DNA from: Squalus acanthias
Lineage: Eukaryota
Direction: 5' to 3'
Length of the DNA: 64,000 nt
Assembly (NCBI GenBank): GCA_030390025.1
Contig: CM059431.1
Location: forward strand, 153,328,001-153,392,000
The translations under genes were made by a program, and so were the position numbers. The notes beneath the pieces are model-generated. The model made no database searches and was not told the origin of the DNA. It was given only the letters and a program-made list of their open reading frames with translations. Position 1 is the stretch's first letter, and every line of letters starts with the position of its first letter. Positions 23,501 to 46,813 of the stretch are shown here, piece by piece.

Positions 23501-23802
23501 ATTTAAAAGAGTTCCCTGAATAATGTGTCCCTGATGGTGAGACTCCCTCTTTAAAAGTGGTCCCTGATGGAGACACACCCACTTTAAAAGGGGTCCCTGA
23601 TGGTGAGACTTTCTTTAAAAGTGTCCCTAATAGGAATAATCTTTTTACGATCGGTCCTTGATAGAAATACTTTCTCTTTAAAAGTGGTCCCTGAAGCTGA
23701 AACACCCTCTTTAAAAATGGTCCCTGATGGTGAGACTCCCTCTTTAAAAAGGACCCCTGCAAGTGAAAATTCCTCTTTCAAAGGGGTCCCTGATGGTGAG
23801 AC
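20561..23802 (+). repeat. 33-bp satellite, forward, block 3
   Basis: Same monomer; ends at GGTGAGAC|TG, the LTR junction. Confidence 0.97.
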
Positions 23803-25213
23803 TGAAATAATTATTACCAGTCCTAGCCCTTTTCTGGCTACCCCGGATCAGGCGTATTCCCCAGAAGTTCACCTTTAACTGAAGTTAGAGTTAGCTGAAT
23901 CCTAATGACGCTTAATTTCTCTCCCTAAAGGAAAGGAACGACCTGAAGATGTTACCGTGCTCCAGATAGCACTTTTAATAAGTATAGCTAGACTGTAACC
24001 TTCCGGTTATTATGAGGGTCCGGAAAACTCCTCCAGAATTCAGCAACTCATCACCAAAGAGTGTACAGAGATTGATTTTGCGAGTTTGATACAGAGGTAC
24101 TATTTGAGACAATTCTAAAAAAACATAGATTTATTAAAGATTCGACATGTAGTTGCAGTTGTTGATTCATTCGTAACTTTAACAGTTCAAAATACAAAAA
24201 AACTTTCAATTCTTATCAGAGATCCTTATTCTCAAATCTTAACTTCGTTACATTTTTACATTTCTTACTTAGTCTTATTCCAGAATATCCACCAAAATCA
24301 AATACAAGTACCTTTGATCCCCGAGACTTAACGAGTTGAAAACTTTTACAGAGCTTGCCTCTGAAGTCTGAGAATCGCTTTGCCCCTTCCAGCGAATTCT
24401 GTCTTCCTATTTGTAATTACAATCTTTTATGCTCTTTCTCATTGGTATATCCTTTGAAGTTTTCTGCTGATGTAAGCTAATTATTTCTAGTCATTTTCCT
24501 GTTGACCCCTGCTTTTCTTACAATTAGTTCAGCTTGTAGTTTGCAGAATTATGTCTGCTGTGTAAGTGTTCGAATCTTATCATAAAAAACGGTTGCAACA
24601 GATGTATCTATTTGATGCCATTCTGACGAAAGTCTTCAATTCAATTATTATGTCACCTCAGCTGGTTGTATTATAGATCTCGTGTGTCCTCGGTGTTCCA
24701 AATTCAACACAAAAACAATGTGATGGCTGTTGCATCTATTGATGTCATATTTATGAAAGTCTTATGTTTATATATTTTTAGAACATGTAAATTAAAACCA
24801 CCTCAACTGGGTATCTCATTGTCTTCTTAGCAGCCTCAGTTGGTTGCAATAAATAATCGTGTCTCGTGATTCATTTGATGTCTCCTGTGTTTCATTTGAT
24901 GTCATATCTATGAAGGCATATGTTTCTTTAATGTTCTGTGTTTCATTTCACAAAGTGTTGGTTTATGACACCTAAACAGGGTATGGCTATTGTGTTTTTT
25001 CTCAAGCTACAAACTTTTGGGAACCTCTAACCTTCTGCTTCAATGAGTCTATTGTTTCAGTGTCAACAACTTAACTTATCTCAAAAGCCTACATTCTTTT
25101 TACAGCTTTTCCTTGTTGAGCCTTTCAGATTTCCAAGCCCAGTTTGTCATGTTCTAATCAGAATTATTTCATAGGATGGTGTATTTTTCAGAAATATGAC
25201 ATGTTCCTTCACA
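23803..25213 (-). repeat. 3' LTR of the foamy-like provirus (1411 bp)
   Basis: Direct repeat of 45390-46813, with TG...CA ends and a minus-strand AATAAA at 24130-24135. Preceded on the minus strand only by a degraded purine run (CAAGAGTAGTT). Confidence 0.9.
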
Positions 25214-25737
25214 AACTACTCTTGACCAAAAAATGCACTGGACCATCTAGACAGAGTGTGATCAATGTTACTAATAAGATTACAATAGCACATTAATTCC
25301 ACGTGATTCACAAACATGTGCTTCATTAAAATTCCTTTTAAGTTATTCTAGGACAATGTTTTGCCTTATTTTAAATTGAACACAATCAGCGAAATAACAT
25401 GTACTTAGAATGTGCAATCGGCAGATGTTCATTCCGTAGAGGTGAGTTATTCAAGGAGACATCATTTCGAACTAAATGTAGCTTAAGAACATAAGGACAT
25501 AAGAAATAGGAGCAGGAGTAGGCCAATCGGCCACTTGAGCCTGCTTCACCATTCAATAAGGTCATGGCTGATCTGATCCTAAACGTCAATCTACTATCAC
25601 AGAACCATCTCCTGAACCTAACAGAATTGGACACACGAAATAGGAGGAGGATCAGGCTACACGGCCCCTGGGACCGCTAGGCTACCCACAGGGCCATGAC
25701 CGATCCAAATATGGACTCATGTCCAAATTCCTGCCCG

Positions 25738-28701
25738 CTACCCGTAACCCTTAATTCCCTTTACTTCTAGGAAACTGTCTATTTCTGTTTTAAATTTATG
25801 TAATGATGTAGCTTCTACAGCTTTTTGGGGCAGCATATTCCATGGACCTACCATCCTCTGAGTGAAGTAGTTCCTTCTCATCTCAGTTTTGAAAGAGCAG
25901 CCCTTTATTCTAAGACTATGCCCCCTAGTTCTAGTTTCACCCATCATCGGGAACATCGTCCCCGCATCCACCCGATCCATCCCCTTCACAATCTTATATG
26001 TTTCAAAAAGATCGCCTCTCATTCTTCTGAACTCCAATGTGTAGAGTACAATCTACCCAACCTCTCCTCATATGTCCATCCCCTCATCCCCGGGATTTAC
26101 CTAGTGAACCTTCTTTGTACTGACTCGAGAGCAAGTATGTATTTTCTTAAGTATGGACACCAAAACTGTATGCAGCATTCCAGGTGCGGTCTCACCAATA
26201 CCTTGTACAACTGAAGCAATACCTCCCTATTTTTATATTATATCCCCCTAGCAATGAAAGCCAACATTCCATTGGCCTTCTTAATCACTTGCTGCACCTG
26301 CATACTAAACTTTTGAGTTTCGTGCACCAGGACCCCCAGATCCCTTTGCAGTTCAGTACTTTCCAGTTTCTTGCCATTAAGATAATAACTTGCTCTACTA
26401 TTTTTCCAGCCAAAGTGCATAACCTCACACTTTCCAGTATTGTATTACATCTGCCAAATCTCTGCCCACTTACTTAGACTGTCTATGTCCCCTTGCAGAT
26501 ATTTTATGTCCTCCTCACTCACTACTTTCCCTCCCATCTTAGTATCAACTGCAAACTTTGATAAGTTGCACTCGGTCCCCTCCTCCAAATCGTTAATATA
26601 GATTGTAAAGAGTTGGGGAACCAACACTGACCCCTGCGGAACACCACTAGTTACTGATTGCCAGTCTGAGAATGAACCATTTAGCCCAACTCTCTGCCTT
26701 CTGTTAAATAGCCAATCCTCTATCCATGCCAGAATATTACCCCCAATCCCGTGATTTTTTATCTTAAGCAATAATCTTTTGTGTGGCAACTTGTCAAATG
26801 CCTTTTGGATGTCTAAATACACCACATCCACTGCTTCCCCCTTATCCACCCTGTATGTTACTTCCTCAAAGAACTCCAGCAAATTTGTCAAACATGACTT
26901 CCCGTTCATAAAACCATGCTGACTTTGTCTTATTAAATTATGATTATCCAAATGTCCCGTTACTGTCTCCTTAATAATGGACTCCAAAATTTTACCTACC
27001 ACAGATGTTAGGCTAACCGGTCTATAGTTTCCAGCCTTCTGTCTACTGCCCTTTTTAAATAAGGGTCTTACATTAGCAGTTTTCCAGTCTGCCGGGATCT
27101 TTGTTGAGTCCAGAGAGTTTTGGAAAATGATTACCAATGCATCCACAATCCCTACCGCCACTTCCCTCAAGACCCTAGGATGTAAGCCATCAGGTCCAGG
27201 TGATTTATCCGCCTTGAGTCCCATTATTTTACCGAGTACCACTTCCTTTGTGATTTTGATCGTGTTTAGCTCCTCCCCCCATATAGCCCCCTGTTTGTCC
27301 AGTGTTGGGATAGTCTAGTGTCCTCTACTGTAAAGACTGATACAAAATATTCATTCAGTGTATTTGCCATCTCCATATTTCCCACCATTAATTTCCCGGT
27401 CTCATCCGCTAAGGGACCAACATTTACTTTAGCCACCCTTTTTCTTTTTATATAACTATAAAAACTCTTACTATCTGTTTTTATATTTTTTGCTAATTTA
27501 CTTTAATAATCTATCTTTCTATTGTTAATCAATCTTTTTGTTATTCTTTGCTATCTTTTAAAGTTTTCCCAATCCTCTATCCTCCCACTAGATTTGGCAA
27601 TCTTATAAGCCCTTGTTTTTAGTCGAATACTATCTTTAATTTCTTTACTAAGCCACGGATGACTGTCTTTTCTTTTACACCCTTTTCTTCTCAGTGGAAT
27701 ATATTTTTTTGGAAGTTGTGAAATAACTCCTTCAATGTACACCACTGATCATGTATCGTCTTACCCTTTAATCTATTTTCCCAATCCACTCTACTCAATT
27801 CCGCTCGCATACCTTCATAGTCTCCTTTATTCAAGCTTAGCACGCTTGTTTGAGATCCAACCTTCTCACCCTCTAATTGAATATGGAATTCATCCATGTT
27901 AAGATCACTCATTCCAAGGGGATCCTTTACTACCATTTTTAATTAATCCTGTCTCGTTACACAGGACCAGTTCTAAGGTTGCTTGCCCCCTGGTCGGTTC
28001 AACAACATACTGCTCAAGAAACCCATCCCTAATACACTCAATCAACTCATCCTCAAGGCAGCCCTGCCCAATTTGATTTGTCCAATTAAATGATAGTTAA
28101 AATCCCCCATAATTATAGATGTTCCCTTATTACAAGCCTCAACTATTTCCTGATTGATACTCCGTCCAACAGAGTTGCAACTGTTCGGAGGCCGATAGAC
28201 TACCCCCAGTAGTGTTTTTTTCCCCTTATTATTCCTTATCTCCACCCAAACTGTTTCATTATCATGATCTTTTAACCCAATATCATTTCTCTGTATTACA
28301 GTGATTACTTCCTTTATTAACATAGACAACCCACCTCCCATTCTTTCCTGCCTGTCCTTCCTGATCGTTAAATAACCTGGTATGTTTAATTCCGAGGCAT
28401 TGTCACCCTGCAGCCATGTTTCTGTAATTGCCAAAAGATCATACCCATAAGTAGTTATTTGTGCCATTAACTCGTCAATTTTGTTATGAATGCTACGTGC
28501 ATTCAGATAGAGAACTTTCAAATATGTTTTGTGAAATTTAGTTCCTGCTTTTGCCCTTTTTATTACTTTAGCTTTTACTCCATACCTTCTGCCCCTTCCT
28601 GACACTCTCTGGTTTTTAATTTCCCCACTACTACCTAATTCTATGACCTTCTCTATTTTCATTTTCATTATTTGCTCTCTAGGAACCTCCCCCCACCCCA
28701 C
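25738..28701 (-). pseudogene. CR1 ORF2 (EN+RT), frameshifted with stops
   Basis: Fragments 28042-28701 (YLNARS, ITETW, GDFN), 27691-27936, 27551-27745, 26445-27242 (NYRPVSLTS, GVPQGS, FAVD in place of FADD), 26238-26420 and 25738-26037. Confidence 0.92.
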
Positions 28702-28902
28702 CCACCACTAGATAGTTTAAATCCCTCTCGACAGCCCTAGTTATATGATCCGCCAGGACTCTAGTCCCAGCACTGGCCAAGTGAAGCCCGTCCCAACGGA
28801 ACAGCTCCCTCCAGCCCCAATACTGGTGCCAGTGTCCCAGGAAGCAAAACCCATTTCTACCACACCAGTCTTTGAGCCACTCATTTAACTCTCTAATTTT
28901 AT

Positions 28903-31292
28903 TTACCTAGCCAAATTCGATCGTAGCTCAGGTAATAATTCAGAGATTTTTACCCTTGAGGTTCTGTTTTTTTTTAATTTGACCCCTAGCTGCTCATACT
29001 CCTTTAACACAACCGGCTTCCTTGTCCTATCGATGTCGTTTGTACCAACATGGACCACGACAACTGGATCTACCCCCTCCCACTGCAAGTTTCTTTCCAG
29101 CCCAGATGAGTTGTCCTTAACCCTGGCACCGGGCAGGCAACACAGCCTATGGGACTCTCGCACTCGGCTGCAGATAACTCTATCTATTCCCCTAATAATA
29201 CTATCCCCTACCACTACAACATTTCTACTTACTCACCCCTCTTTAGAGGCCCCCCGTTCCACGGTGCTGTGGCCAGGTTGCTCATCCTCCCTGCTGTCCC
29301 TGCTCCTGTCCCCACTGTAGAATTCGCAAAATTATCGCGATTTTATAATAATAAGGAGACATAAAGTTTCGAATAAACAGCTTTATTTCAGCAGAATGCT
29401 GTCAGGTTTCAAAACGGACACAAACAGCCTATAAAATGGCCGCCACGCCTCGTGGCAGAAAGTTCTAGACTTTCAGTAGGCAGACAAGATGGCGTTTCAA
29501 TAAACATTTCAGCAAGATCGGACAGGACTCAGCACATTTGAGATAATGACATGACGTGATGGGTTTGCATTTTAAACATAAATACTGGAATCGGTCTTCC
29601 AGGTGCAAACAAGGGCTATTGTACTGAGCGATCAAGGACCCATCCAAAGACATTAATATGCAAAATCCCACGGCTCTACGATGAGAGAGCCGTTCGCGGG
29701 TACTCACAGCAATCATTTGGAAGCCCCAAAACCCCTCCAGGGAGACTACTAGCCGGTTCCACAATGGGAGAAATATTAACGGGTACTCAGACAGTTACAA
29801 GTGTCCCCGAAACCCATTAAAGACTGAGATCACCCCATACAAGATGTTTTGAGCGCCAAAACCTGACAAAAGATAGACATTAAGATTGGGCGGGAAAATA
29901 GGAATTACAGCACTATAACTGTAAAGTACAACCGTCCATCTTTCTCTTGCTGCTTTGACTCGCTGGAAGGCTGCTGAACTCTTACTCTCTTGCCTGACGA
30001 CTCTGGACTCTGATCCGCTAGGATCAACCTCGTGGCTTGCCGCGAAGATCTGTAGAGAACTGGGCTGTGAGGCCTGGAGGCGGGCGCACCATCCCGAGGA
30101 GTCGGTAAACGGTGTTGGAACCGAAGGACCGAGAGGAGATGAGATGAGATGAGATGAGAAGAAGACTACACGTGTCGCCGCGGTCAGTAAGCCCCGACCG
30201 CGCCTAAAAATATAAGGACCATTTTTCGAATTCTATCGGCTACTCCACAACTGGCCCGAGAAGACTATTCTTCGAGTTCTACCGACAACTGGTGTAGGAC
30301 ACAGGAAGACTCTTTTTTGAGTAGTATCAGAACTCCGAGGTCAACACAGATCTTCATGACAGCAGACGGTCCAGCCTGCTAGCCGGAGCAGAAGCGAGTA
30401 AACAAGTGGGGTACAGAGACCCCTGATCAACACGTGGATAGTCAGGTGCTGCGGTAAACACATCCGAGCAGAGTTTCGTAATTCTCCGAGTTATCACAAG
30501 TGGTGAGCATGAGTCTCGATCCTACAAATCTAGATTAGGACAGGTATTGATAGGGGAGGGTTTATGTTTTAAGGATAATTATAATGTGTGTCCCCTTTTA
30601 CGATGTGTCGTGCGCTCCTCGTTTCCCTAAACCTAGTTGCATAACTGTATGTAAGTTTGTACTGTCATTAATCTGTGCTTATGACATGTATTTCGTAATC
30701 TTGAATAATATGCAATAAAGATTATCCATTTCGCACTATTCAATCGGGTCTACCTGAGTTTTCTCTGCATTATTGCTCTCGCACCTAAGTCCAGTGTCAG
30801 AACCGCAAGGGCGAGTGGGTCGAACCACTCACAGGTGTCTAGTGTTACCAGGCTGGCTGGAGACCAGAACAGGCAACAAGGCCTAACCCCGCACTAGCAC
30901 CCAGGCTAAGCACAGAGCCACACGTCACCCCTTACACCACAGGGAGTAAGAACCTCGAACCTGTTGGACTAGAGCAAGGGCTGAGGCTCCTCCAACACAA
31001 CCTCCTGGATCCCCGTACCTGCCTCACTCGTAGTCACACCGTCCTGTCCCGGACCATGGGCTACATCTGAATTAATTAACTTCATAGGTGTGACCACCTC
31101 CTGAAACACAGTGTCCACGTACTTCTCCCTCTCCCTGATGTGTCGCAGTGTCTGAAGCTCAGACTCCAGCTCATCAACTCGGAGTTGGAGTTCCTGTAGC
31201 AGCAGACACTTGTCACAAATGTAATCACCGTGAGCCTCAATGGGATCCACCGGCTCCCACATCTCGCAACAGTAGCACATCACCTGCTCCAT
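28903..31292 (-). pseudogene. CR1 ORF1 (Cys-rich zinc finger/leucine zipper + SGNH esterase-like), split by a solo LTR
   Basis: 30969-31292 has CxCC...CxxC followed by Leu heptads (LQELQLRVDELESELQTL). 28903-29214 has VGDS, CLPGA and HVGTND, the SGNH blocks typical of CR1 ORF1. Confidence 0.88.
29316..30936 (+). mobile_element. Solo LTR (1621 bp) of an unrelated LTR element, inserted in CR1 ORF1
   Basis: TGTA...TACA termini and a 4-bp TSD CCAC (29312-29315/30937-30940). AATAAA at 30714-30719 suggests + orientation (tentative). No visible similarity to the foamy-like LTRs. Confidence 0.85.
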
Positions 31293-31879
31293 CCTATGTA
31301 ATTAATTAATTTGTTTTATTGTTAGATTTGGACACTCTCTGCCCGATTATAGATGGTAGTACCCCTCTAAATAATTCTATTTAAATTAAATCAATCCCAC
31401 TAAATTACGCCAGTTAAATGGTTTACCAACAGTCACTCTGCACCAGAAAGGCCTTATTAACTACAACCCACAGAGTTAAAGTTTGAAAAGAGCACCCTAC
31501 ACCCCACTCACCCGAACTCACACTTACCCAAACTCAGCACTCTCTGCTGAGTCGCACTCAGTGCTTGCTTGCACTAGCACTGGTCTTTTTATACTGTTTG
31601 TTTGTTTACAGCCAAATCAGTCACCCCTGCTGATTGATTAGAAAACTGTTTTACACTGCCTGCTGAGCCAATGTACTCCTACTGCACTGTAAACTTGTTT
31701 TACTCTTCTTAAACCAACATAATCCCAAATATTTAACTTTTACCCTTCACTTAAACTGCTCAAGTACTCTTATCAAGAATGATTTAAAGAGAACTAACAA
31801 TTAAAGAACTCTCACACTTAGCCAAACTCAGCACTCTCTGCTGACTCGCACTCAGTGTTTGCTCGCACTAACACTGGTC

Positions 31880-32192
31880 ACACGCTGTTCCTTCGATCCG
31901 ATGTGTGTACTGATTCTTGTTTTCATAAAGGTCTTGCCAGGCACTCAGTTGATTCCTTCTTCATCCACGATGTCTTCCTCCTTCATTGAAGCAACTCGTT
32001 AATCTTTCCTTGTTTCAGATGTTGCTTTTCGCGAATCCAATTCCTGAGGCTTTGCCAAGCATCGTGTGGAGGAGTCGGCGACACCGTCTGACTGACTTTT
32101 ATCAGTAGTTCGATCGCATCCATTTCCTGTGTCATACTCCAAGCTGGGTCTAGAAAGACAGTGTACGACTGCACCTTGTATTATTCCTCCAT
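31880..32192 (-). pseudogene. env: Possible env 5' remnant (leader region), cut off by the CR1 insertion
   Basis: A second frame starts at ATG 32192 (MEE*YKVQ...PPHDAWQSLRNWIREKQ) and overlaps the pol 3' end, where foamy env begins. Sequence similarity is weak. Confidence 0.4.
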
Positions 32193-35160
32193 TTCGGTAT
32201 CCCGCAGGACATCTTTTGAGATTGTCTATGGAGACAGTTTTAAGAATATGCTTGCCATTCGGTTAATTAATATGTATTTGAACTGTTCTTTCGTTAATAA
32301 CAGAATGTATTTGAACAGGTTTTTTCCACTTCGGTCTTAAACTAGGTTTTTGCTCGAACTTCTTTTCCTGTACCCATTCTCCTACTAGGGGTTTCCATGC
32401 TTTGTTTGTCAATCGTTTCTGCCTTTTTGCTTCCCTTATCCTCTGATCAATTTGATGAATCTCCTCTTTTACTTCTTTTTTTAAATCTAACTGTCACTGT
32501 CGGGTCAAGGACTCAGAAAGTGCAGAGGCAATAAAATAACTATGGGTAAGTGGTGTATTCATCTCAATTCCACACATCAGATAAAATGGGGTTTTAGGGG
32601 ACACTGTCCCTGATGCAGATGCGGGCACATTATTAAGTGATAGCTGCACCTCCGGAATAACGGTGGTCCACTTATTCCCCCTGAATCTCAACAGTTTGAC
32701 CAATACGTGTTTTACTTTCTGGTTTTTCCGTTCCACCAGCCCCACTGATATCGGATGACGTGGCGTGCTGTGCTCTAACCCAATCCCCCTTTGTTTGCAG
32801 TAGTCTTCGAAGACCTTGGAGACAAAGGCTCTGCCTTGATCGGAGTGTAAGATTTTGGGTGCACCAGCTTAAGTAATTATGTTAGAAATAGCCTTAGCTA
32901 GTGCGTTTTCTGAAACAATTTTTGTGGAGACCAGCCAGCAGAAGAAAGTGCATCCACCTACACAAACGAGAACATGTCTGTATCCCAAAGACGGGGGAAG
33001 TGGTCCAATAAAGTCAATAAAGATTTTTCCCCATTGACTCATCAGCTTTCACAGGAGCCAATGGTGGTGGCTTAATTAGTGATGACTTATTGGTTAACTA
33101 GCATGGCTCACAATTTGCCACGTATGTTTTACAGGCATTAAGCATGCCTGGCCACCAATATAAGGAGGTCAATTTGCAGAATGTTGTTCTGGCACCAGAA
33201 TGTGCTTGACTTATGTCATCTTGAGCTCCTTTTACAAGCTGTTGTCGTTTGTGTCTCGGGGGTACTCCTCGGTTTCCCTTGGGCAAATTAGTTAGCACAA
33301 TACCCGTACGGGTTCCGAGTAAAAGTACTTTGGTGGATATCCTGGTGGATTCTCTTTTGTTGGGTCTAATAGCTGAATCAGTTCCTCATCCTGATTAGCT
33401 GCCCGTTCTGCCCTAGTGATAACATTAATATTGGCATGACCCTCTCGAGGGGGGGTCAAGCAGACTAAACGTTTCGCTTGTTCGTCTGCAAGACTGTTTC
33501 CTTTTGAGCGTACTGTCCCAGTGGTATGCCCGTTCACAAGAATCACCTGACAATTCTGTTTCTCCATTCTCGATAGGAGAATGTCTTCCCACAATGACTT
33601 ATGTTTTATGGGTTTACACTTATGATTGGTAAAATTTGTTTGTTCCCAGAAAACTAGATCTTGGTTATCTCCTCTGTTATGGTAGTCACTATCCATAAAG
33701 ATTCGTGTGGGTTTAATAAGGTCTGACTTTTCTAAAGTATACCGTAGTGCTGCAGCTTCATCATACTGCGCTGTCTTATGGCCAAGGGGTATGGACAGTA
33801 ATTCTTCTGTATAAAAAGAATAGGAATCTCGAAAGGTCCCTACTACTATCCCCATCCCAGCTGAGGATTGTTGGGATGTCCCTTGTTTAATCGTCATTAA
33901 CGATCCATCACAGTAAATGACTTGATGGTATTATGTAAGCAGTCTCATAGGTATTTGTCTCATTCGCTGCTCCGTATCCTCATTCTCCATGATGGGGATA
34001 AGCTCTGTCCATTTCCGGGGAGAGGAATTTAATGATGAGTGTTGTATCATTCAAGTAAGATTGCCCATTTATCATATCAGATCTGGGTGGCTCTTTTTTC
34101 ATCAGAGGCCATCCTCAATACTGATCTTATATCGGTAATTTCAGTATAGATGGTAATGGGGTATTTCCCAGAAGGGTTCGTGCCTTGATGAGGCATTGGA
34201 CTACCATAGTCATGAACATTTATTTTTTAATGTACCTCCTTTCGACATTGAAAAAGTTACACAAATGGAACTGAATGGGCACTATGTTCTTTTCATTATA
34301 GAAAACTGCAACTGCCATTTTAGGTAATGACCTGAGACGAATATTGAGTGGAACTTGTAGGACCATCTGCTCCACGTCTATGGCTTTTCGTACCTTTCGG
34401 CATAATTGTTGCAATTTTGAGTAATCCTCTGATGAAAATATGAATGATCCTTTTGCTGCTTCGCCCACTCTAGCATACAGGGGTGCTGAGAGCTTGGCAA
34501 AGGTTGGCGTAAAGTATCGAGCAAAATTCTGGAGTCCTAAACTTGCTTGCAGATTTTTCAGAATTTTAGGATATTTAATGGAGGCTAATTTTTCTTTATA
34601 AAATTGAGTTAATCCTCTACCGAATCCAGTTATTCGCAGGCACAGAAAATCTACCTCTTCCCTAACTAGTTGACTCTTTTTTATGTTGATTAATTACCCA
34701 GCAGTTGTAAGTCTGGATAAAACACTATCAATGGCTTTCAAGTGCTCTTGGAGATTGTCATGTGACAGAGATATATCGTCCACATAAGAATTGACGTTAG
34801 GTAGGTATTTTAAATGGTCTATTTTGTGGACTGAAATGAGAACGGGGCTGTTTTGAAATTCCAAGGACAATCTGGTCCAGCAGTACTGATAATCATTGGG
34901 TCCAGTCATCGCTGTTTTTGGCCAATCAGTTTTTTCGATTGGATGTGACCAGAAGCCGTTTGCTGGACCAATACAAGATTTATATTTTTCCCTCGTGATT
35001 CCAGAGAGAAGGGCTGTGGAATTTTGCTGTTGTGCAGTATGTGGGGCTGTTATCTTATTTAAGGCTGTATAATCGACTAATAATCTGCAACTCCCATCTG
35101 GTTTAGCAACACCAAAGAATGGTGAATTAGTTCTAGATCCCATTTTGATTAAGACACCTT
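31999..35160 (-). pseudogene. pol: Foamy-like pol, 3' part: RT, RNase H, integrase
   Basis: RT: QGVLIK..NSP..KPDGSCRLLVDY, ANGFWSHPI, LPNVNSYVDDISLSHD. RNaseH: AGMGIV, SIPLGHKTAQ, KPIKHKSLW, GNSLAD. IN: AHSG..YWWPGM..CEPC, IDFIGPLPPS, PKILHSDQG, VERKN, WKPLVGEWVQE..SLRPKWKKP, TVSIDNLK. Many stops and frameshifts. Confidence 0.93.
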
Positions 35161-36369
35161 GGGGGAAAAATTCAGTCGAGCCCCGTTTGGGGCGCAAATA
35201 TCGTCCGGGCGCAAAAATTAGCGCCTGGCGCTAATTATCGCCACTGACTGGAAACTTCACTTTTAACGCCCCGGGAGGTGATTGGAGCGCTAAATCAGGC
35301 GCTGCACACCTGTCTTAAGGCGCAAAGGCCGAGGAGTGAGGCGCTAACTCAGAGCGCGAGCGCAGCGCAGGTGCTGCCAGTTAGCGAGGGAACACAGACA
35401 CACTGGCGCCGGCCAGTTCTTAAAGGGGGGGGGCGATCTTGCTTCCCAGCCACACCCTGCTCATTGCAGCCTTGAATCTCGGCCTGGAGAGACCTGTGAA
35501 TCCATTTTCCAGCCAAGGATGGAGAGGGTGAGAGAACGAGCTGAGCGCTTCACCGAGCGGGCCTTGGATGCTCTGGTTGGCGCGGTGGAGCGCCGAAGAC
35601 CAATACTGTACCCAAAGAGTGGCAGGAGGCCTTTGCCGCGCGACTACAGAAGAGTGTGGAGGGAGGTGGCTCAGCGCGTCTCCTCCAGGAGCATGGTGCC
35701 CAGGACCCATGTCCAATGCCGGAAAAAGTTCAACGACCTCACTCGGGTCGTCAGGGTGAGTGGCTTTTTTGCAATACCTCTCCATCCCTCCATCTCAACC
35801 TCACTCTATGGCCAGAGGGTCTTAAAACCACAATTAACAACACTCATCCAACACCTATGGCCCTTTCATGAAGCACACACACACATTCCATACTTTGCAT
35901 ACAGTAAGGGCTATTCACCTATGGGAGGCACATCAGGCAAGACCATGGCTGTATACAGTAAGGGCTATTCACCTATGGGAGGCACCTCAGGCAAGACCAT
36001 GGCTGTATATTTACTCAGACACCGTCCTTTTTCTTGCAGGCCAAGGTGGCGCATAATAGGAGACAGCAGCAACGGACGGGTGGAGGGCAGCCTCAGCTGC
36101 AACCCCTCAGCGATCTTGAGGAGCGCGTCCACAGGATTGTGGCAAGCCGGGTGATCAGTCCCGGTCCCGTCGCCACTGGAGACGGCGACCCCGTTCTGGA
36201 CAGCAATGGTAAGGTCATCACCTTTTTGTCCTCTGTCCTTCCACTTGTCCCTCACAACACCAGCCTTTGACACTTTCAATCCAACTTACTAACTCGCTGC
36301 ACTTATTCCTCCCTTACTGCCACCCTGTCCTCACGCCATAGCCACTCTTGCACCTCCCTGCTTTCAGAT

Positions 36370-39300
36370 GAACATAAGAACATAAGAACATAAGAAATAG
36401 GAGCAGCAGTAGGCCAATCGGCCCCTCGAGCCTGCTCCGCCATTCAATAATATCATGGCTGATCTGATCCTAACCTCCAATCTACTATCTATCACAGAAC
36501 CATCTCCTGCATCTAACAGAATTGCACACACGAAATAGGAGCAGAATCAGGCTACACGGTCCCTGGGCCCGCTCCACTACCCACAGGGCCATGACCGATC
36601 CGAACCTAGACTCATGTCCAAATTCCTGCCCGCTCCCCGTAACCCTTAATGCCCTTTACTTCTAGGAAACTGTCTATTTCTGTTTTAAATTTATTTAATG
36701 ATGTAGCTTCTACAGCTTTTTGTGGCAGCATATTCCATGGACCTACCACCCTCTGAGTGAAGTAGTTCCTCCTCATCTCAGTTTTGAAAGAGCAGCCCCT
36801 TATTCTAAGACTATGTCCCCTAGTTCTAGTCTCACCCGTCATCGGGAACATCCTACCCGCATCCACCCGATCCAACCCCTTCACAATCTTATATGTTTCA
36901 ATAAGATCGCCTCTCATTCTTCTGAACTCCAATGAGTAGAGTCCCAATCTACCCAACCTCTCCTCATATGACCACCCCCTCATCCCCGGGATTAACCGAG
37001 TGAACCTTTTTTGCACTGCCTCGAGAGCAAGGATGTCTTTCCTTAAGTAAGGACACCAAAACTGTATGCAGTATTCCAGGTGCGGTCTCACCAATACCTT
37101 GTACAACTGAAGCAATACCTCCCTATTTTTATATTCTATCCCCCTAGCAATGAAAGCCAACATTCCATTTGCCTTCTTAATCACTTGCTGCACCTGCATA
37201 CTAACCTTTTGAGTTTCGTGCACCAGGACCCCCAGATCCCTTTGCACTTCAGTACTCTCCAGTTTCTTGCCATTAAGATAATAAATTGCTCTAGGATTTT
37301 TCCTGCCAAAGTGCATCACCTCACACTTTCCAGTGTTGTATTCCATCTGCCAAATCTCTGCCCACTTACTTAGCCTGTCTATGTCCCCTTGCAGGTTTTT
37401 TATGTCCTCCTCACTCACTACTTTCCCTCCCATCTTTGTATCATCTGCAAATTTTGATATGATACACTTGGTCCCTTCCTCCAAATCGTTAATATAGATT
37501 GTAATGAGTTGGGGACCCAGCACTGACCCCTGTGGAACACCACTCGTTACTGATTGCCAGTCTGAGAATGAACCATTTATCCCAACTCTTTGCTTTCTGT
37601 TAGATAGCCAATCCTCTATCCATGCCAGAATATTACCCCCAATCCCGTGATTTTTTTACCTTAAGCAATAATCTCTTGTGTGGCACCTTATCAAATGCCT
37701 TTTGGAAGTCAAAATACACTACGTCCACTGGTTCCCCTTTATCCACTCTATATGTTACTTCCTCAAAGAACTCCAGCAAATTTGTCAAACTATCAGGGAA
37801 AGGCACAAACGAAAAGTGGAGCTTTTTCATGGAGCAATTACTGCGTGTCCTTGATAGCTATGTCCCTGTCAGGCAGGGAGGAAATGGCCGAGTGAGAGAA
37901 CCATGGTTCACAAAAGAGGTTGAATGTCTAGTCAAGAGGAAAAAGGAAGCGTACGTAAGGATGAGAAAACAAGGTTCAGTTGGGTCGATTGAGGGGTACA
38001 AGGTAGCAAGGAATGAGCTAAAAAAAGAGCTTAGGAGAGCTAGGAGGGGGCATGAGAAGTCCTTGGCGGGTCGGATCAAGAAAAACCCCAAGGCTTTTTA
38101 CTCTTATGTGAGAAGTAAAAGAATGACCAGGGTGAGGGTAGGGCCGGTCAAGGACAGTAGTGGGAACTTGTGCATGGAGTCAGAAGAGATAGGAGAGGTG
38201 ATGAATGAATACTTTTCGTCAGTGTTCACCGAGGAGAGGGGCCATGTTCTGGAGGATGAGAGTGTAATAAAGGTGGATAGGCTGGAGGTGGTAGATGTTC
38301 TGAGGGAAGATGTTTTAGCAATTTTGAAGAACCTGAGTGTCGATAAGTCCCCTGGGCCAGATGGAATATATCCTAGGATTCTTTGGGAGGCAAGGGATGA
38401 GATTGCAGAGCCTCTGGCTTTGATCTTTGGGTCCTCACTGTCCACGGGGATGGTGCCAGAGGACTGGAGAGTGGCGAATGTTGTTCCTCTCTTCAAGAAA
38501 GGAAATAGGAATGACCCTGGTAATTATAGGCCGGTTAGTCTTACTTCGCTGGTTGGTAAGATAATGGAAAATGTCCAGAGGGAGAGGATTTATGACCATT
38601 TGGAAAGGGGCAACTTAATCAGGGATAGTCAACACGGATTCGTGAAGGGTAAGTCTTGCATAACAAATTTGATTGAATTCTTTGAGGAGGTAACTAAGTG
38701 TGTAGATGAAGGTAGAGCAGTTGATATCGTATACATGGATTTTAGTAAGGCGTTTGATAAGGTTCCCCATGGTCGTCTCATGAAGAAAGTAAGGAGTTTT
38801 GGGATAGAGGGAAATTTGGCCGATTGGATAAGTAACTGGCTATCTCATAGAAGGCAGAGGGTGGTGGTGGATGGAACATTTTCGGACTGGACACCAGTTA
38901 CCAGCGGTGTGCCACAGGGGTCGGTGCTGGGTCCTCTGCTGTTTGTGATTTTTATCAATGACTTGGAGGAGGGGACTGAAGGGTGGATCAGTAAATTTGC
39001 TGATGACACCAAGATTGGTGGAGTAGTGGATGAGGTGGAGGGCAGCTGTAGGCTGCAAAGAGACATTGATAGGATGCAGAGCTGGGCCGAAAAATGGCAG
39101 ATGGAATTTAACCCTGATAAGTGCGAGGTGATTCATTTTGGTAGGGCAAATTTGAATAAGGATTACAGGGTCAACGGCAGGGTTCTGAGGAACGTGGAGG
39201 AGCAGAGGGATCTGGGGGTTCATATCCACAGATCTCTGAAGGTTGCCACTCAAGTGGATAGAGCAGTAAAGAAGGCCTATGGTGTGCTGGCCTTTATTAA

Positions 39301-40046
39301 CAGAGGGTTTGAGTTTAAGAACCGTGAGGTTATGCTGCAACTGTACAGGACCTTGGTGAGACCACATTTGGAATATTGTGTGCAGTTCTGGTCACCTCAC
39401 TATAGCAAGGACGTGGAAGCATTGGAAAGAGTGCAAAGGAAATTTACCAGGATGCTGCCTGGTTTGCGGGGAGGTCTTATGAGGAAAGATTGAGAGAGTT
39501 GGGGCTTTTCTCTTTAGAGCGGAGGAGGATGAGAGGCGACTTAATAGAGGTTTATAAGATGATGAGGGGGATAGATAGAGTGGATGTTCAGAGACTATTT
39601 CCTCGGGTAGAGGCAGCTGTTACAAGGGGGCATAACTATAAGGTGCATGGGGGGAGATATAGAAGGGATGTCCGAGGTAGATTCTTTACTCAGAGAGTGG
39701 TTGGGGTGTGGAATGGACTGCCTGCTGTGATAGTGGAGTCGGACACTTTAGGAACTTTCAAGCGGTTATTGGATAAGCACATGGAGCACATCAGAGTGAT
39801 AGGGAGTGTGATAGCTTGATCTTGGTCTCGAACAATGCTCGGCACAACATCGAGGGCCGAAGGGCCTGTACTGTGCTGTACTGTTCTATGTTCTATGTTC
39901 TATGTTGTATGACTTCCCCTTCGTAAAACCATGCTGACTTTGTCCTATTAAATTATGATTATCCAAATGTCCTGTTACTGTTTCCTTAATAATGGACTCC
40001 AAAATTTTACCTACCACAGATGTTAGGCTAACCGGTCTATAGTTAC
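36370..40046 (-). mobile_element. 5'-truncated CR1 LINE inside the Harbinger, split by a second CR1
   Basis: (GAACATAA)n tail at 36370, RT C-terminal ORF 36612-37523, continuing to 37790 and resuming at 39909-40046 (GNYRPVSLTS..QHGFTKGKS). Same family as 25484-31879. Confidence 0.92.
37791..39908 (+). mobile_element. 5'-truncated CR1 LINE of a different subfamily, with an almost open RT
   Basis: The RT frame is open from the junction to ~39470 (NYRPVSLTS, MDFSKAFD, GVPQGSVLGP, FADD), then one frameshift and a stop at 39817-39819. Distinct short 3' UTR and (TTCTATG)n tail. Confidence 0.93.
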
Positions 40047-41292
40047 CAGCTGAGGAGACGGGCCCTGAAGCTGCCAGTGGGATTGAAGCTGCAGCCGAGG
40101 AGGAAGAGGAAGCCGGAGCATCAGTGCCACTCTCTCCCGAGGAAGCCCATGCCGACACTGGGAACACGCCTTCCCTGGAGGGGAGCAGGGGGGAAGGGTC
40201 TGATGAGGGTGAAGCTCCAGGACCCAGCGCGCTGCAGCAACGCGATGGGGGTAGGGAAGCTCGGGGGCCTTCTCCCCGGAGGGAGAGTATGCCAGCGAGT
40301 CCTGCTGCACTGGACGCAGAGGAGGAGCGGCTGATCGCGGAAATGAACAGCAGGCGGTGGGCATGCACACTGAGCTCATGGCTGCAGTGGGTAGGGTGCC
40401 CGAATGCATTGAAGCACTGGCAAGGCGTGTGGAGCACTTCGCTGCAGCGCAGGCGGATGCGACACTGAACCTCAGTGCTGCAATTCAATCTCAGACTGCT
40501 CTCATGCAGACTCAGATTGAGGTCACGCGAGCACTGTCTGCTGCCATCCTCGCTGGTTCGTTCACATTTCCCCGGGGCTCCCACCGCTCCGCAGCAGGCC
40601 AGCAATCTGTGCTCCAGCAGATTGCTCCGGATGCTGAGGTGCTGCCCCGTGGGAGTGCCAGTGTGCCGGTCGAGCAGGGAGTTGCTGTCCTCGCTCAAGA
40701 TGACAGCATTCCTGCTGCCACCACTGTCACTTCTCCACTGCAGATGCCGACCGCCTGTAGGACAGACTGCTGCCGCCCATGCAGAGTTGGTGCAGTCTGC
40801 AGCCGGGACCTCCACGCCCAGAACTGGTCGAGGCCGTCCCTCAAGGGCATCTGCATTGTCAGGGCCTGACAGTCAGCAGCCTTCCACCAGCCTTGCTGCA
40901 GCCACTGAGGTCCCATTGAGGAGGAGCAGTAGGGTAAGTAGGGGGGAAGGGCGCACGGTAAGGAGTTCACCCTCGATGTAGGAGGTGTGACAAAATGCTG
41001 GTCATTTTTTTATTAAAGGCCGAGGTTCGTGGTCAAACTTTTGTTGAGTGTTTTGCACATGATCTCCAGGTTGTGAGAACCAGTTATGGTAATGACTGTT
41101 TTTTTGTGTTTATTTGTATGAGTTTGTCATGAAGAAATGACACACACAGAGTTTGTAAAATAAATAAGTTTTGGTACTCAAAATATACATGTTTGGTGTT
41201 TGGAATCATTGGTGCCTTGGAAGGCTTAGGGGTTGCGTGTTGGGTTCATTCATGCTGTTCTCAATGGCAGAAGCCATTTCCACAGCAGGGGC

Positions 41293-41391
41293 CTAGAAGC
41301 GGCTTGCTATCAGCCGCTGACGGACGGCCCTTGCAGTTTCACCATTGTGGGCCGCCCTCACGCCTTGGTGCTGCTGCTGATTATCCTCATC

Positions 41392-41422
<31 letters not shown>

Positions 41423-42453
41423 GGTGGTGCTCCAAGGCCTGGTGGCATTGGCTGGGTCCTGAGGATTGCCATGTTATGCAGCATGCAGCACACAACTACG
41501 ATGTTGGAAACTCGCTCAGGCGAGTACTGCAGGGCTCCTCCAGAATGGTCGAGACAGCGGAACCGTTGCTTGATCACGCCGATTGTGTGCTCCACGATGT
41601 TCCTGGTAGCTTGATGGCTCTCGTTGTACCGCAGCTCAGCAGGGGTGTTGGGCGTACGGAGCGGTGTCATCAGCCAGGTGCTCAGTGGATACCCCTTGTC
41701 CCCGATAAGCCAACCAACTGGCTGATGCGGTGCCTCGAAAAGTTCTGCCACAGTAGTCTGGCGCAGGATGAAAGCATCGTGGCAGCTGCCAGGATAGTGG
41801 GCATTGACAGCGAGTATCAGCTGTCTGTGGTCACAGACCAACTGAACATTCAAGGAATGGAACCCCTTTCTGTTCCGGAAATCCTCGGCATTCTCATGCG
41901 GAGCACGCAAAGCCACATGCGTGCAGTCAATGGCGCCCTGCACCATGGGGAAGCCCGCTATCCTCGCAAAGCCCAGAGCGCGTTCTTGCTGCTTGTCTGG
42001 GGTCATGGGGAAAGAGATGAACTCTCGTCTCCTTTTAAAGAGGGCATTTGTGACCTTCCTGATGCAGCAATGCACCGCGAACTGGGAGATATTGGCGATG
42101 TCCCCAACAGCAGATTGAAATGAGACAGTAGCATAAAAGTTCAGAGCCACTGTGACCTTCACTGCCACCGACAGAGACGTCCTGGACCTCAGTTGAGGCT
42201 GCAGATCTGGCTGCAGCAGGTGGCAGAGCTCAGTGACCACCTCCTTGCTGAAGCGCAGCCTTCGCAGACACTGCTCATGAGACATATGAATGTAGGAGAG
42301 CTGTTCACGATATACCCTGGGAGGGTAAGCTCTCCTGTACAGACGCCTGTTGGCCCTCCTCCGTCTGGCCATCATTGCCACTCTCTCTCTGCGTCTCTGT
42401 CTCCTCCGATTCAGCTGGCGCAGGACGACGCCCCCCATCAGTGCAGCCCCCAT
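41293..42453 (-). CDS. PIF/Harbinger (HARBI1-like, DDE_Tnp_4) transposase, open reading frame
   Basis: Uninterrupted ORF with GAIDCTH, FRNRKGFHSLNVQ, PGSCHDAFIL, GDKGY, YNESHQATRNIVEHTIG, RFRCL and CCMLHN. First ATG at 42453. Confidence 0.93.
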
Positions 42454-42646
42454 ATCTCTTAGCAAGCAAAGTTATGAAGGCCAGAAACCAAAGTACCAGC
42501 GAAGTTAGGATGAGTAGCCAAAACTACCTCACACAGCGTTGTCTCAATGCAGAAGTCTCTCTTTCTCTCTCTCCGAATCTCTCTCTCTCTCTCAGAACGA
42601 GTGGTGCAAAAATGTCAACCACAGAGAAAGACAGGAAGAGGCCCCC

Positions 42647-42791
42647 TTTAAATAGCGCCCCCCCCCAGCCCCACAGCGATTGTTAGCGTTCCACTCTTCC
42701 GGTCGTTGGATGCGCCAGGCGGTAAGGATGGGGGCGCCACTGAAATTCTGCTCGGGGCGCCACAAGGGCGTTGCACTCTAGTATGACGTCA
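42647..42791 (-). promoter_or_regulatory. Putative transposase promoter (CRE + TATA-like)
   Basis: TGACGTCA at 42784-42791 and TATTTAAA (minus) at 42647-42654, upstream of the ATG. Both are retained in the non-autonomous copy (~10288 and ~10424). Confidence 0.45.
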
Positions 42792-42963
42792 CAATCTGCG
42801 CGCGCAGTAGATCGCGGCGATAAAGTTTAGCGCCGCCGCAAAATGTCTAGTTAAGTTCGCGAGCGGCGCAAACATCGCTGCGCCCGGGCGCTAGCTGCTT
42901 TGCGCCCCATTAGCGCACTCTTAAGGCGCTAACGGGAGGCGCAACCAACTGAATTTTTCCCCC

Positions 42964-43560
42964 CTTGTTCTGTTAGTTCTTTGAGCGTTGTTAGAAGATC
43001 TATTTTTCCTTTGTGGTCCTGAATAGGCACTGTTTTTTAGGTTTGTTCCAGCCAGCATCAAGTGGGTGGGGTTTGATGTTTATCTTTCCACATTGATTTG
43101 GATGGCGTTGTAGATAAGGGTAGAATATATTAATGAGTTGCTCGAGGAGGTCTTTGCATCCACCCTCTAGGCAAGTTCGATCAAGCTGTGTCCGAACATG
43201 TTTTTCCCTGTCATCCTGGTCTGCGGATGCTTCTACAGATCTGGTTGAAATTTTAAGGTAATGTTTCATGTCTGGTTGTCCTATAATGAGGGAACAGGCC
43301 AATTGTGGTACCAGTCCGACATCTAGGGTCACCGTGATTCCATATATGGTAATAGGTATTTTGTAATAATTAATTATTTAGGTTTTGTCTTGTGTGAATC
43401 CCCCTAATGGAATTTTACAAATTGGGCTTCCCAAATCTGTCCTGTTAGTTTTTATAATTGTAGGATCTATTACAGTGTAATCAGCTCCCGTATCAAACAG
43501 GGCCTTCACTTGTGTGTTTGTGGTTAAGTTTGCCAGGGCATAGGGGAATTCAAGAGGCCT
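42964..43560 (-). pseudogene. pol: Foamy-like pol, 5' part: aspartic protease and RT N-terminus
   Basis: VKALFDTGADYTVI protease active site, then HPNQCGKINIKPH..PKKQ, continuing across the Harbinger insertion into RT. Confidence 0.88.
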
Positions 43561-45127
43561 TGAATCCTGGGACTGTCCATACTCAGGATCCTGAGTTTCA
43601 TTTGGTGCTTTGTCTTTAATTATTCTAACTGATTTTTGTTCCTCCCTCTTGGGGGTATCATGTTTTCCAGATCCCTTCGGGAGCTTGTCGGACCGTTTAT
43701 TATCTTGACGATCCTCCTGTTGGGGTGGACGTTGCTTCTGTTGGGAATTGTTTTGATAAACATTTCGGATTTCCTGGTAGCCCATCATGGCTCTCTGATA
43801 GTTTTGGCCAGTGTAAAAGCTATCCCCATAGGGAGTCCACTGTACTTCACTTTCGTTTTGAGGTCTAGCCCCTCTTCTATACTATCTTTCCGGGGAGAAA
43901 TCTTCCTCGTATTGTGGGCGAGTTGGGGGTGTAAACCTTCTGGAATACCCTCTTGGGGGTTCCCGAGCCACGAGCTTGTGTCTGGGCGGGGTGGACTTGA
44001 GACTTGGGTCTAAACAGTCCTTGTTTCTGAGTACCAAAGGTACCTTCTCCGGTTTTTATATCCCAAGTTTCTGATCTCATTATAGGTTTAGTTTGGGGTA
44101 GACCTAAGAGGTAATGATTTAATTGGATAATGCGATTGAAATTTTCCCATCTTTGTTGGTTATTTCGATAATCGTTTAAAACCCCCTCACAGGCAAGTTT
44201 GAGGGCTGTATTTTGGTATTGATTGGCCAGGCAACCATGGACAATGCCTCAGTTATCCTGTGTAAGTACATTGCCTAATCTGTAGGCAGCTACCAGCCCT
44301 TTAGTTGTGGCGGTATTAGTGAGTATTTCCATGATGGAACCCATTACAAGCCCTCCCTGTGTTGCCGTGAGAACATAGGCGTATATTTAAACCCATTTGT
44401 TAATGGGGGAATTATGTCTGAACTTAGTATCATTTGCAGTAGTTGCCTCAGGTGTGGGGCATTTTAATCTTGGCAAGAGGTTTCCAATTTATCAAGGTTT
44501 GTTAGAATCCAGCAGGTTCTTTCCCGGCTGGTGTTTCCCGGCTTACCACATATTGTGCAGATAGAGCGTAGGTTTACTTGTCCTTGGGGAGCAATGTGTG
44601 GTTGCTGGGTTTGGCTTACTGGACCAGTAAGCATTGCGCCACCAGCATTTAGATATGATTGAGCTCGTGCCTGTCGACATTGATTATAATGGATTCTAAG
44701 CAGTCTATATTTTTCTCGAAGATTCTGCTCATTTATTTCATCGTGAGCTTCCACTTCAACCGGAATCCATGTCCCGCGGGAGCCTAGGCAGCTCCTGGTC
44801 CTACTATTCTGCCATGGTTGCCACCACCTTGTTGGGCACCGTTCATTAGGCCTCCCAATTGTGCAGGTGTGCACGTTATCATTAAGGAATTCAGTGGATT
44901 TGGAATATCTGTTTCAGTATCCTACTGGATATTCTGTATCAACTGATTCTTGGGATCACATCAATCGTGCCATGAGTTCTAACTGCTCCATCGGCATCAC
45001 AGCCTCCTATTTCAAAAACTATCACTTGGTTTTGTGAAGGTAAAGAGATATAATTATTTCCCCTAATAAAGCAATCGTTTGAATTTCCTAATAAAAAGAC
45101 TTGGCCAATTACGACAGGGTTTGCCAT
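43560..45127 (-). pseudogene. gag: Foamy-like gag
   Basis: ATG at 45127 downstream of the PBS. Hand translation gives LRSICTICGKPGNTSRERTCWILTN and KGLVAAYRLGNVLTQDN*GIVHG...ENFNRIIQLNHYLLGL, resembling spumavirus Gag central domain motifs (IRSVTGEPPRNPREIPIWL; GVATAYTLGMML..YEILGL, recalled from memory). No CCHC knuckle seen. Confidence 0.82.
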
Positions 45128-45373
45128 TTCTTAAGGACCTAATCTCGGTTAGGTTTTAATATGAACTTTATAAGAAATTTCTAGACCTCAATGGTATATT
45201 GAGGGCGTTCTGATTTAAGTTGTACAAGGCCTGATCAGGGACTTGCTGTCTCTAGAGACTTAAGTCTGGGTCTTATTACCACTGTCAGTAAAACATTCAT
45301 CTATACATAACAATCTACAAGATGGATATAGATATAAATATAAGTTTAGGTTCTGTATCAACTCGTTAACACA

Positions 45374-45387
45374 CACGTTGGGCGCCA
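45374..45387 (-). promoter_or_regulatory. Primer binding site, tRNA-Lys1,2 type
   Basis: Minus strand reads ...TTTCA GT TGGCGCCCAACGTG, matching the first 14 nt of the Lys1,2 PBS used by foamy viruses, 2 nt after the LTR end. Confidence 0.9.
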
Positions 45388-45389
45388 AC

Positions 45390-46813
45390 TGAAAGGATTA
45401 TTATTAGTTCTAGCCGTTTTTGGGCTACCCTGGATCAGCCGTATTCCCCAGGCGTTCACCTTCAACTAAAGTTAGAGACGCTTAATTGGGTCTAGAGGTC
45501 CAGACTATCTCTCCCTATAGGAAAGGATCGAGCTGAAGATGTTACCGTCCTCCAGATAGCACTTTTAATAAGTTTAGCTAGACTGTGACCTTCCTGATAT
45601 TATGAAGATTTGGAAAACTCTCCCAGAATTCTGAAACTCCTCACCAAAGAGTGTACAGAGATTGAGTTCGCGAATTTGATACAGAAGTACTGTGTCAGAC
45701 AATTCTAAAAAAATATACAGATTTATTAAAGAATCAACATGTAGTTACAGTTGGTGATTCAGTAGCAATATTAACAGTTCAAAATACAAAAAGCTTACAA
45801 TTCTTATCATCAGTGCTCCTTATTCTCAAATCTTAACTTCTCTACATTTTTACATTTCTTACTTAGTCTTATTCCAGGACATCGACCAATATCAAATACC
45901 TTGATACCCGAGTCTTAAAGAGTTGAAAACTTAAAGAGCTTGCCTCTTAAGTCTGAGAACAGGTTTGCCCCTTCCAGCGAATTATGTCTTCCCATTTGTA
46001 AGTTCTATATTTATACTCTTTCTCAGTGGTATATCCTTTGACGCTTTCTGCTGATGTAAGTTAATTATCGCTAGTCATATTTCTGTTGACCCCTTCTATT
46101 CTTACAGTTAGTTCAGCTTGTAGCTAGCAGAATTATGTCCCCTCCTTTAGGTGTTCCAAGTTCATCATAAAAAACGGTTGTAACAGACGTGTCTATTTGA
46201 TGCCATTCTTACGAAATACTTCTATTAATTTCCTAAGTCACCTCAGATGGTTGTATTATAGACTTCGGGTGTCCTAGGTGTTCCAAGTTCCACACAAAAA
46301 CAATGTGATCGCTGTTGCATCTAGTGATGTCATATTTATGAAAGTATTCTTTTTGTATCTTTTTCCAATATGTAAATTAAAAACACCTCAACCGGGTATC
46401 TCATTGCCGTCTTTGTTACCTCAGTTGGTTGTACCACAAACTCCTGCCTCCGTGTTCAAAGCTTAACATAAAAATGATTTGATGGCAGGTGTTCCTTTTA
46501 CTTGATGTCATTTTTACAAAGGCACATGTTTATTTAATGTTCTCTGTTTTCTTTCAAATTATTGGTTCAAGACACCTTCAACTGGGTATGTTATTGTGTT
46601 CATTTCCAAGGCTTCAGACATACGGGAACCTTTAAACTTCTGCTTCAATGAGGCTATTGTTTGAGTGTCAACAACTTTTTTTAATCTCAAAAGCCTGTAT
46701 TCTGTTTACAGCTTCTGAGGTTTTCAGATTTGCAAGCCCAGTTTGTCATGTTTAATTAAGTCAGAGTATTTCATAGAAAGGTGTATTTTTCTGAATATGG
46801 CTATTCCTTCACA
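45390..46813 (-). repeat. 5' LTR of the foamy-like provirus (1424 bp)
   Basis: Minus strand starts TGTGAAGGAATAGCC and ends TTCA next to the PBS. TATAAA at 46010-46015 and AATAAA at 45722-45727 (both minus) imply a long R region. Confidence 0.92.

Follow-up and report, generated by a model that had tools for sequence, protein, structure and literature searches.

Production of Pol independently of Gag is the textbook trait that sets foamy viruses apart, and it is tied to RNA-mediated packaging of Pol. A sequence-only reading of a 64,000-nucleotide stretch of DNA (the whole of which is called the window here) had described a foamy-virus-like provirus within it. This locus raises the question of how an element whose gag continues in frame into the protease made its Pol, and how its family spread through the genome when most copies lack env. 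The locus itself is ordinary debris. The interest is at the family level, where env loss goes with amplification and gag, UGA and pol lie in one frame.

Identity and layout of the window provirus

The provirus occupies 23803-46813 on the minus strand, flanked on both sides by blocks of a 33-bp satellite (Table 1). Self-comparison of the window pairs 23801-25213 with 45388-46813 at 81% identity, and two LTRs of about 1.4 kb (46813-45390 and 25213-23803) are indeed found there, with ends in TG (46813, 25213) and CA (45390, 23803). Their length is as first described, whereas the long R ascribed to them is just a prediction, of about 280 nt from TATAAA at 46015 to AATAAA at 45727. The primer binding site (PBS), TGGCGCCCAACGTG at 45387-45374, equals that of exogenous foamy genomes in its first 14 nt and diverges thereafter, in keeping with the tRNA-Lys1,2 assignment. 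The 4-bp target site duplication (TSD) reported for a solo LTR of the family (AGAC, at 18482-19615) is also present, and among six dispersed proviruses with both ends read it is exact in five, with one mismatch in the sixth. The two top-level nested insertions lie where they had been placed (25484-31879, and 35161-42963 with a CTT duplication). Between integrase and the 3' LTR only about 590 bp of element DNA is left, and the GGG-TG border between polypurine tract and LTR, present in siblings, has decayed.

Table 1. Features of the provirus and its surroundings, in window positions
Feature	Position	Strand	Remarks
5' LTR	45390..46813	-	TG...CA; predicted TATA 46015, polyA signal 45727; 5' flank GGGA
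Primer binding site, tRNA-Lys1,2-type	45374..45387	-	14-nt match, 2 nt past 5' LTR
gag	43564..45127	-	ATG 45127; interrupted by frameshifts and stop codons; has spuma central domain and G/Q/R-rich C-terminus, without zinc knuckle
gag/pol junction codon	43561..43563	-	TCA in window copy; 18-nt deletion directly after
Protease and RT start	42964..43560	-	DTG at 43494; in frame with gag end; no AUG ahead of active site
Remaining pol	32155..35160	-	RT (YVDD 34786-34775), connection, RNase H, integrase (H2C2, DDE core, SH3); broken
env 5'-end remnant	31880..32190	-	About 100 codons of leader; 65% identity to env N-terminus of env-bearing copy
Remnant 5' of 3' LTR	25214..25483	-	Polypurine tract decayed
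3' LTR	23803..25213	-	3' flank GTCT
Solo LTR, same family	18482..19615	-	4-bp TSD (AGAC on +)
33-bp satellite, one polarity	20561..23802	+	
33-bp satellite, opposite polarity	46817..49989	-	
PIF/Harbinger transposon	35161..42963		Transposase 41293-42471, Myb ORF 35348-36154, CTT duplication; LINE pieces within
CR1/L2-type LINE	25484..31879	-	At env-deletion region; common to two segmental duplicates
Solo LTR, another family	29316..30936	-	1.6 kb, TG...CA, TSD CCAC (4 bp), inside LINE

That this is a foamy-type endogenous retrovirus (ERV) is strongly supported by its coding remains, since Gag, protease (PR), RT and integrase all match foamy viruses. Gag pieces from the window itself match the spuma-type central domain (Gag_FV_central, PF20672, E=1e-10; two other copies, E=3e-13), and Gag matches PDB 5m1h (E=4e-4). 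The zinc-knuckle pattern CX2CX4HX4C is absent from every gag frame, and both properties had been read correctly from the sequence. The search for Gag homologues returned nothing at E<=0.01, and a poorly aimed profile search of short proteins gave no match. The protease match on the window pieces is weak (Spuma_A9PTase, PF03539, E=2.5e-5, 24.9 bits against a cut-off of 21). The pol pieces match RVT_1, RNase_H, Integrase_H2C2, rve and SH3_11 and carry all three of the motifs first noticed, YVDD in RT and SLRPKWKKP and TVSIDNLK at the end of integrase. The best PDB match of RT is a foamy RT (E=8e-68, against 1e-22 for Ty3) and that of integrase is PFV integrase (E=3e-58, against 1e-8), so that foamy PR-RT and PFV integrase lead by more than 40 orders of magnitude. 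A purine run kept in the integrase core of the family is a candidate central polypurine tract, with a counterpart locatable in only three of seven controls. Foamy-type Env (PF03408) was found at at least six family loci of the same genome; the window keeps just the leader remnant.

The RT tree (IQ-TREE; 32 rows, 425 columns, 22 rows omitted that were mostly redundant mammalian foamy and Gypsy sequences) places the window RT inside the foamy clade with SH-aLRT/UFBoot support of 99.9/100. It stands apart from the Gypsy, epsilon/gamma and snakehead-like rows, so Pol does not group with Gypsy or with non-spuma ERVs. Two controls (L113 and L114) are presumably snakehead-like and epsilon ERVs, judging from their layout, and the tree does not join the window RT to either type. 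A tether and an RNase H lie downstream of the RT, which speaks against membership of Ty3/Gypsy, and the tree agrees. Within the foamy clade the window RT groups with mammalian and salamander foamy viruses (94.6/96), with Callorhinchus and teleost-type elements outside. Its neighbors (90/92, long branches) are a Scyliorhinus torazame element, the 1687-aa sequence P0027 and a second lineage of the same genome. Support for this subclade placement is moderate and the branches are long, in a tree whose rows include no named lokiretrovirus and no named published fish, coelacanth or reptile foamy ERV; a larger tree with an unfinished search gave the same topology. The nearest named sequences, the catshark element included, are about 40% identical to the window RT, and a close named relative of the family was not found in the sequences compared. 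The host is likely a cartilaginous fish, as had been supposed, given the catshark RT and a PRDM11-like exon with 81% identity to a catshark protein, but the exon comparison had no control and this is not proof.

The second foamy lineage (L130:3500-10000 and L131:1-2800, at G000:C10:78.18 Mb) is single-copy, has a full Lys PBS and carries further ORFs past pol with no Pfam matches. Relatives of the solo LTR at 29316-30936, about 71-73% identical to it, lie inside two other foamy-family copies (L031 and L137). Harbinger elements inserted independently at one pol trinucleotide in 4 of 46 loci (the window, L049, L090 and L094), on four chromosomes. The site in the window is at 35158-35163 and 42961-42966, and L062 has a 3-nt loss there, possibly an excision scar. 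The target consensus that PMC3016246 quotes for Harbinger3_DR is similar to this pol site. Elsewhere in the window, an RT element at 59515-61311 has an open frame of 598 aa whose C-terminus includes a GIY-YIG-like segment; by eye the element looks Penelope-like. The satellite (1100-23800 and 46817-62700) contains long open frames of an 11-aa repeat, a unit-length effect with no sign of a gene.

Loss of env, copy number and the divergence of the window copy

A genome usually contains few endogenous foamy viruses. For this family at least 127 RT loci were scored, spread over most of the large contigs, in a sample that favors the best RT matches and includes some mutual segmental duplicates. The window copy has lost env and accessory genes, and its env-deletion junction recurs in dispersed copies, being spanned by 40 of 40 scored matches (out of 466 candidates). 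In env-bearing copies only about 550 bp separate env from the LTR, with no clear accessory ORF in the three decayed copies concerned. A pol tree of 35 loci gathers the env-less copies into a single star-like clade (100/100) that lies within the env-bearing and partly deleted copies. In each of 12 other proviruses the two LTRs are 1.5-5.2% apart, which equals 15-52 Myr at the rate of 0.5e-9 assumed in PMC10699275; the env-bearing copies, at 3-4%, overlap the env-less ones. One locus (L139:138-9574) holds tandem proviruses with a common middle LTR.

Substitution ratios indicate that pol is under purifying selection between copies. In pol, pN/pS is 0.45 in env-less full-gag copies, 0.27 in gag-deleted copies and 0.99 in a satellite trio that includes the window copy; with shared variants only, it is 0.39 for full-gag and 0.06 for gag-deleted copies. 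The NG86 neutral baseline is below 1, and private-variant ratios of 0.44-0.68 are weak signals only. The gag-deleted copies are a sub-lineage marked by a common in-frame deletion of 993 nt, seen in eight copies and also present in contigs of three of four runs, and one full-gag copy nests in their clade. A spliced pol copy was rejected as the source of this deletion, the ends of which show microhomology and not GT-AG.

A single env-less clade with far more copies than the env-bearing ones, together with selection on pol, fits amplification without Env, and the env-less copies likely spread by intracellular retrotransposition. Foamy capsids carry reverse-transcribed DNA and cannot bud without Env, so env-less capsids would be expected to re-enter the nucleus. 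Intracellular spread is supported by the dependence of foamy budding on Env (PMC7828637) and by reports that PFV retrotransposes (PMC3814592). Alternatively, env-less copies could have reinfected cells with the help of Env and transactivator from env-bearing proviruses or from an exogenous virus. The overlapping LTR divergences of the two kinds of copy would permit such supply in trans, and the full-gag copy within the gag-deleted clade suggests co-packaging and recombination. In addition, mammalian foamy LTRs need an internal promoter and an accessory gene, both of which the deletion would have taken. However, env-less copies far outnumber env-bearing ones in one star-like clade, an excess that Magiorkinis reportedly described in 2012 as the usual pattern of env-less ERV amplification. 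We therefore regard helper-dependent reinfection as unlikely, though it deserves serious attention, and favor intracellular spread.

The suggestion that the window copy would serve deep spumavirus phylogeny did not hold up. It is a poor representative, among the most diverged of the at least 127 loci, and it lies without a TSD on a rearrangement breakpoint. Its two LTRs differ by 15%. It is one of three segmental duplicates, the paralogues lying 80 kb and 480 kb off, which share the LINE, four gag frameshifts and a polarity flip of the satellite; the two paralogues are without the Harbinger. The flanks of the provirus are GGGA and GTCT, and the core motif of the satellite reverses polarity across it. 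As both ends are precise, the TSD is absent and the satellite flips, we infer an inversion by recombination with a family LTR in the opposite orientation.

Alternatively, the 15% could reflect a far older insertion or a recombinant of two LTR subtypes, and the missing TSD, the polarity flip and the four frameshifts common to the three duplicates are all compatible with it. Yet the env-less clade includes the trio, which has a stem of 0.044 (other tips are mostly 0.01-0.024), and against its siblings it shows pN of 7.3% and pS of 7.4%, without the synonymous excess that an older virus would show; env-bearing copies have pS of 8-11%. The excess divergence of about 5% is even across all segments, LTR identity has no step along its length, and the substitution spectrum of the trio is shifted from GC to AT (32:8 against 102:76, p=0.007). 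A chimeric LTR with an internal crossover was rejected, as no step in identity was seen. Great age or recombination thus appears improbable, and a local mutation rate raised 3-4x likely explains the 15% distance better than age, at this one locus. If so, LTR dating fails for the window copy.

Four family LTR ends (18482, 19615, 20560 and 23803) abut one AGAC/GTCT position of the satellite unit, other satellite LTRs being in other phases. Truncated LTRs of a more distant family subtype also lie in the satellite (19720-20560 and 62738-63977). Strict targeting of the satellite was rejected, because the dispersed copies examined lie outside it and the satellite LTRs use several phases.

The gag-pol junction

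In exogenous foamy genomes pol is +1 relative to gag in 17 of 17, and a Met stands 19-23 residues ahead of the PR motif in 14 of these; the pattern did not resolve in the other three. The foamy trait of a separate-frame pol with its own AUG is not found in the family, where gag and pol share one frame, the junction is a UGA and there is no in-frame AUG from this stop to the active site. The frame of one copy stays open from the gag Met across PR into RT. Snakehead- and walleye-type controls also carry an in-frame stop between gag and pol.

The junction codon, 26 codons ahead of the ALF-DTG motif, could be read at 42 loci: it is TGA at 29 (one of which adjoins a 1-nt deletion), TGG at 9, TCA at 3 (the window trio, one duplicated locus) and TGC at 1, with 3 further loci unreadable. 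No frameshifting indel near the junction is common to copies beyond the window's own duplicates. The TGA is found in an env-bearing copy (C17) and in successive outgroups of the env-less clade, whereas TGG has at least three independent origins on the pol tree. Only two env-bearing copies have a readable junction, one with TGA and one with TGG (C22); it is deleted in three others. Three large runs, each from a different organism, yield contigs in which TGA makes up roughly 75-82% of summed depth and TGG the remainder.

The second lineage of the genome, which is sister to the family, also has gag and pol in frame, with one stop. This stop is probably later damage, since P0027 is continuous there: it is a single Gag-Pol ORF of 1687 aa, and its Gag is 36% identical to that of the sister lineage. 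Gag of the window's family gave no alignment with P0027 Gag. With the family and the sister lineage both in frame, UGA read-through would be the likely route to Pol, and we consider it likely from these sequences that Pol was made as a Gag-Pol fusion through read-through of a single UGA. A stem predicted 14 nt past the UGA has z=-2.7 in a 131-nt window and z of -1.2 to -1.3 in shorter windows. The structure does not reach significance in the short windows, one of the four windows folded having been off position, and the downstream hairpin is weak evidence.

It could be argued that Pol did not depend on Gag but came from a spliced mRNA borrowing an upstream AUG exon, and that the UGA is a plain gag stop. 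Mammalian foamy viruses as a rule make Pol independently (PMC7828637), and PMC5210030 states this for the foamy-like ERVs of teleosts too. An AG in the family immediately precedes the codon that lies 23 residues ahead of the PR aspartate, which is the Pol-Met spacing of simian foamy controls. However, the pyrimidine tract ahead of this AG is poor, stop-less TGG variants replicated and, in the sister lineage, Gag-Pol is a single uninterrupted frame (P0027). We regard a spliced Pol as unlikely here, yet as a serious rival. Even less probable, in our judgment, is a stop-less ancestral Gag-Pol, with a master copy that was later inactivated by the TGA and gave rise to descendants mobilized in trans. 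P0027 is fused without a stop, and TGG occurs in the env-bearing C22 copy and at 8 other loci, as this would predict. Against it, both the env-bearing C17 copy and the successive outgroups carry TGA, and TGG is scattered over at least three branches. Moreover, CpG decay did not give rise to the TGA, since none of the 42 loci has a CGA or CAA allele, and the shared pol variants of full-gag copies are depleted for replacements (0.39). Read-through of the UGA remains our preferred explanation.

With newt and cichlid foamy-like ERVs, in which pol is out of frame, as outgroups, parsimony under thin sampling suggests that the gag-pol fusion was gained in the shark clade.

Proposed history and comparison with known systems

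Taken together, the window provirus is a dead copy of an env-deleted foamy-type ERV that rather probably multiplied intracellularly and expressed Pol fused to Gag through read-through of the UGA. An infectious ancestor, arranged as LTR-gag-UGA-pol-env-short accessory region-LTR, would have entered the germ line, and one provirus would then have lost about 3 kb of env and accessory region. Its env-less capsids, unable to bud, would have re-entered the nucleus and produced the star-like burst. The in-frame 993-nt gag deletion may have founded a sub-lineage in which the stop was mostly lost (TGG) and pol was kept under selection, and which would need Gag in trans. The window copy would have landed in the 33-bp satellite, likely recombined with an oppositely oriented family LTR, with inversion and loss of the TSD, and then gained the LINE, two duplications and the Harbinger, while decaying perhaps 3-4x faster than its dispersed siblings.

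A broader proposal can be made only tentatively: that the shark foamy clade makes Pol as a Gag-Pol fusion (by UGA read-through, or in the sister lineage from a continuous frame), so that spliced, Gag-independent Pol would not be universal, and that one member became an env-less retrotransposon of hundreds of copies with a stop-less, Gag-dependent, Pol-producing sub-lineage. A foamy-clade lineage with in-frame gag-UGA-pol makes the origin or loss of Gag-independent Pol testable. The large env-less burst bears on foamy capsids acting as germ-line retrotransposons, and the window copy warns that LTR dating within satellite DNA can overestimate age several-fold.

The family resembles the exogenous mammalian foamy viruses (prototype, simian, feline and others) in its Lys1,2 PBS, 4-bp TSD, long LTR, Gag central domain without a Cys-His box, A9-type protease, YVDD RT and foamy integrase SH3, in the foamy Env of a few members and in a Pol identity of 38-39%. 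It differs from them in its gag and pol, which share a frame, meet at a UGA and leave Pol without an AUG (all 17 controls are +1), and in the stretch of about 550 bp from env to LTR without a clear accessory ORF; most copies are also without env.

Wang, Chen and Cui reportedly described in 2023 a cartilaginous fish endogenous foamy virus (CFEFV) that is basal to or near the tetrapod foamy viruses. By this description, host group and position are similar to those of the family. We found no account of in-frame gag-pol or of an env-less burst in a foamy ERV in the literature covered, where this most relevant paper stood outside the comparison; the accessible part of the bioRxiv version of Chen 2021 has no mention of shark, splicing or read-through. 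The catshark (S. torazame) RT is the nearest named one, yet at about 40% identity it belongs to a different lineage.

Foamy-like ERVs are known in cartilaginous fish (PMC5512871, PMC10699275). The elements of Callorhinchus, teleosts and newt (PMC5512871, PMC5210030) and ERV-Spuma.0-Sca (PMC10699275) share with the family membership of the foamy clade, a mostly Lys PBS, a 4-nt TSD and a G/Q/R-rich Gag end without a zinc finger. In contrast, the group that contains the family excludes the RTs of Callorhinchus and teleost-type elements, and ERV-Spuma.0-Sca is reported to group with ray-finned-fish elements (PMC10699275, in part). NviFLERV-2 and AciFLERV also differ, as simple arithmetic on the published coordinates available puts their pol out of frame with gag.

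In expression and spread the closest parallels are found elsewhere. According to PMC8278194, the class III element XtERV-S has gag and pol in frame with TGA between them, and class III ERV-L amplified without env. By analogy, the family likely works as XtERV-S and ERV-L do. Unlike these non-foamy elements, it has a foamy Gag, protease and Env and sits inside the foamy clade.
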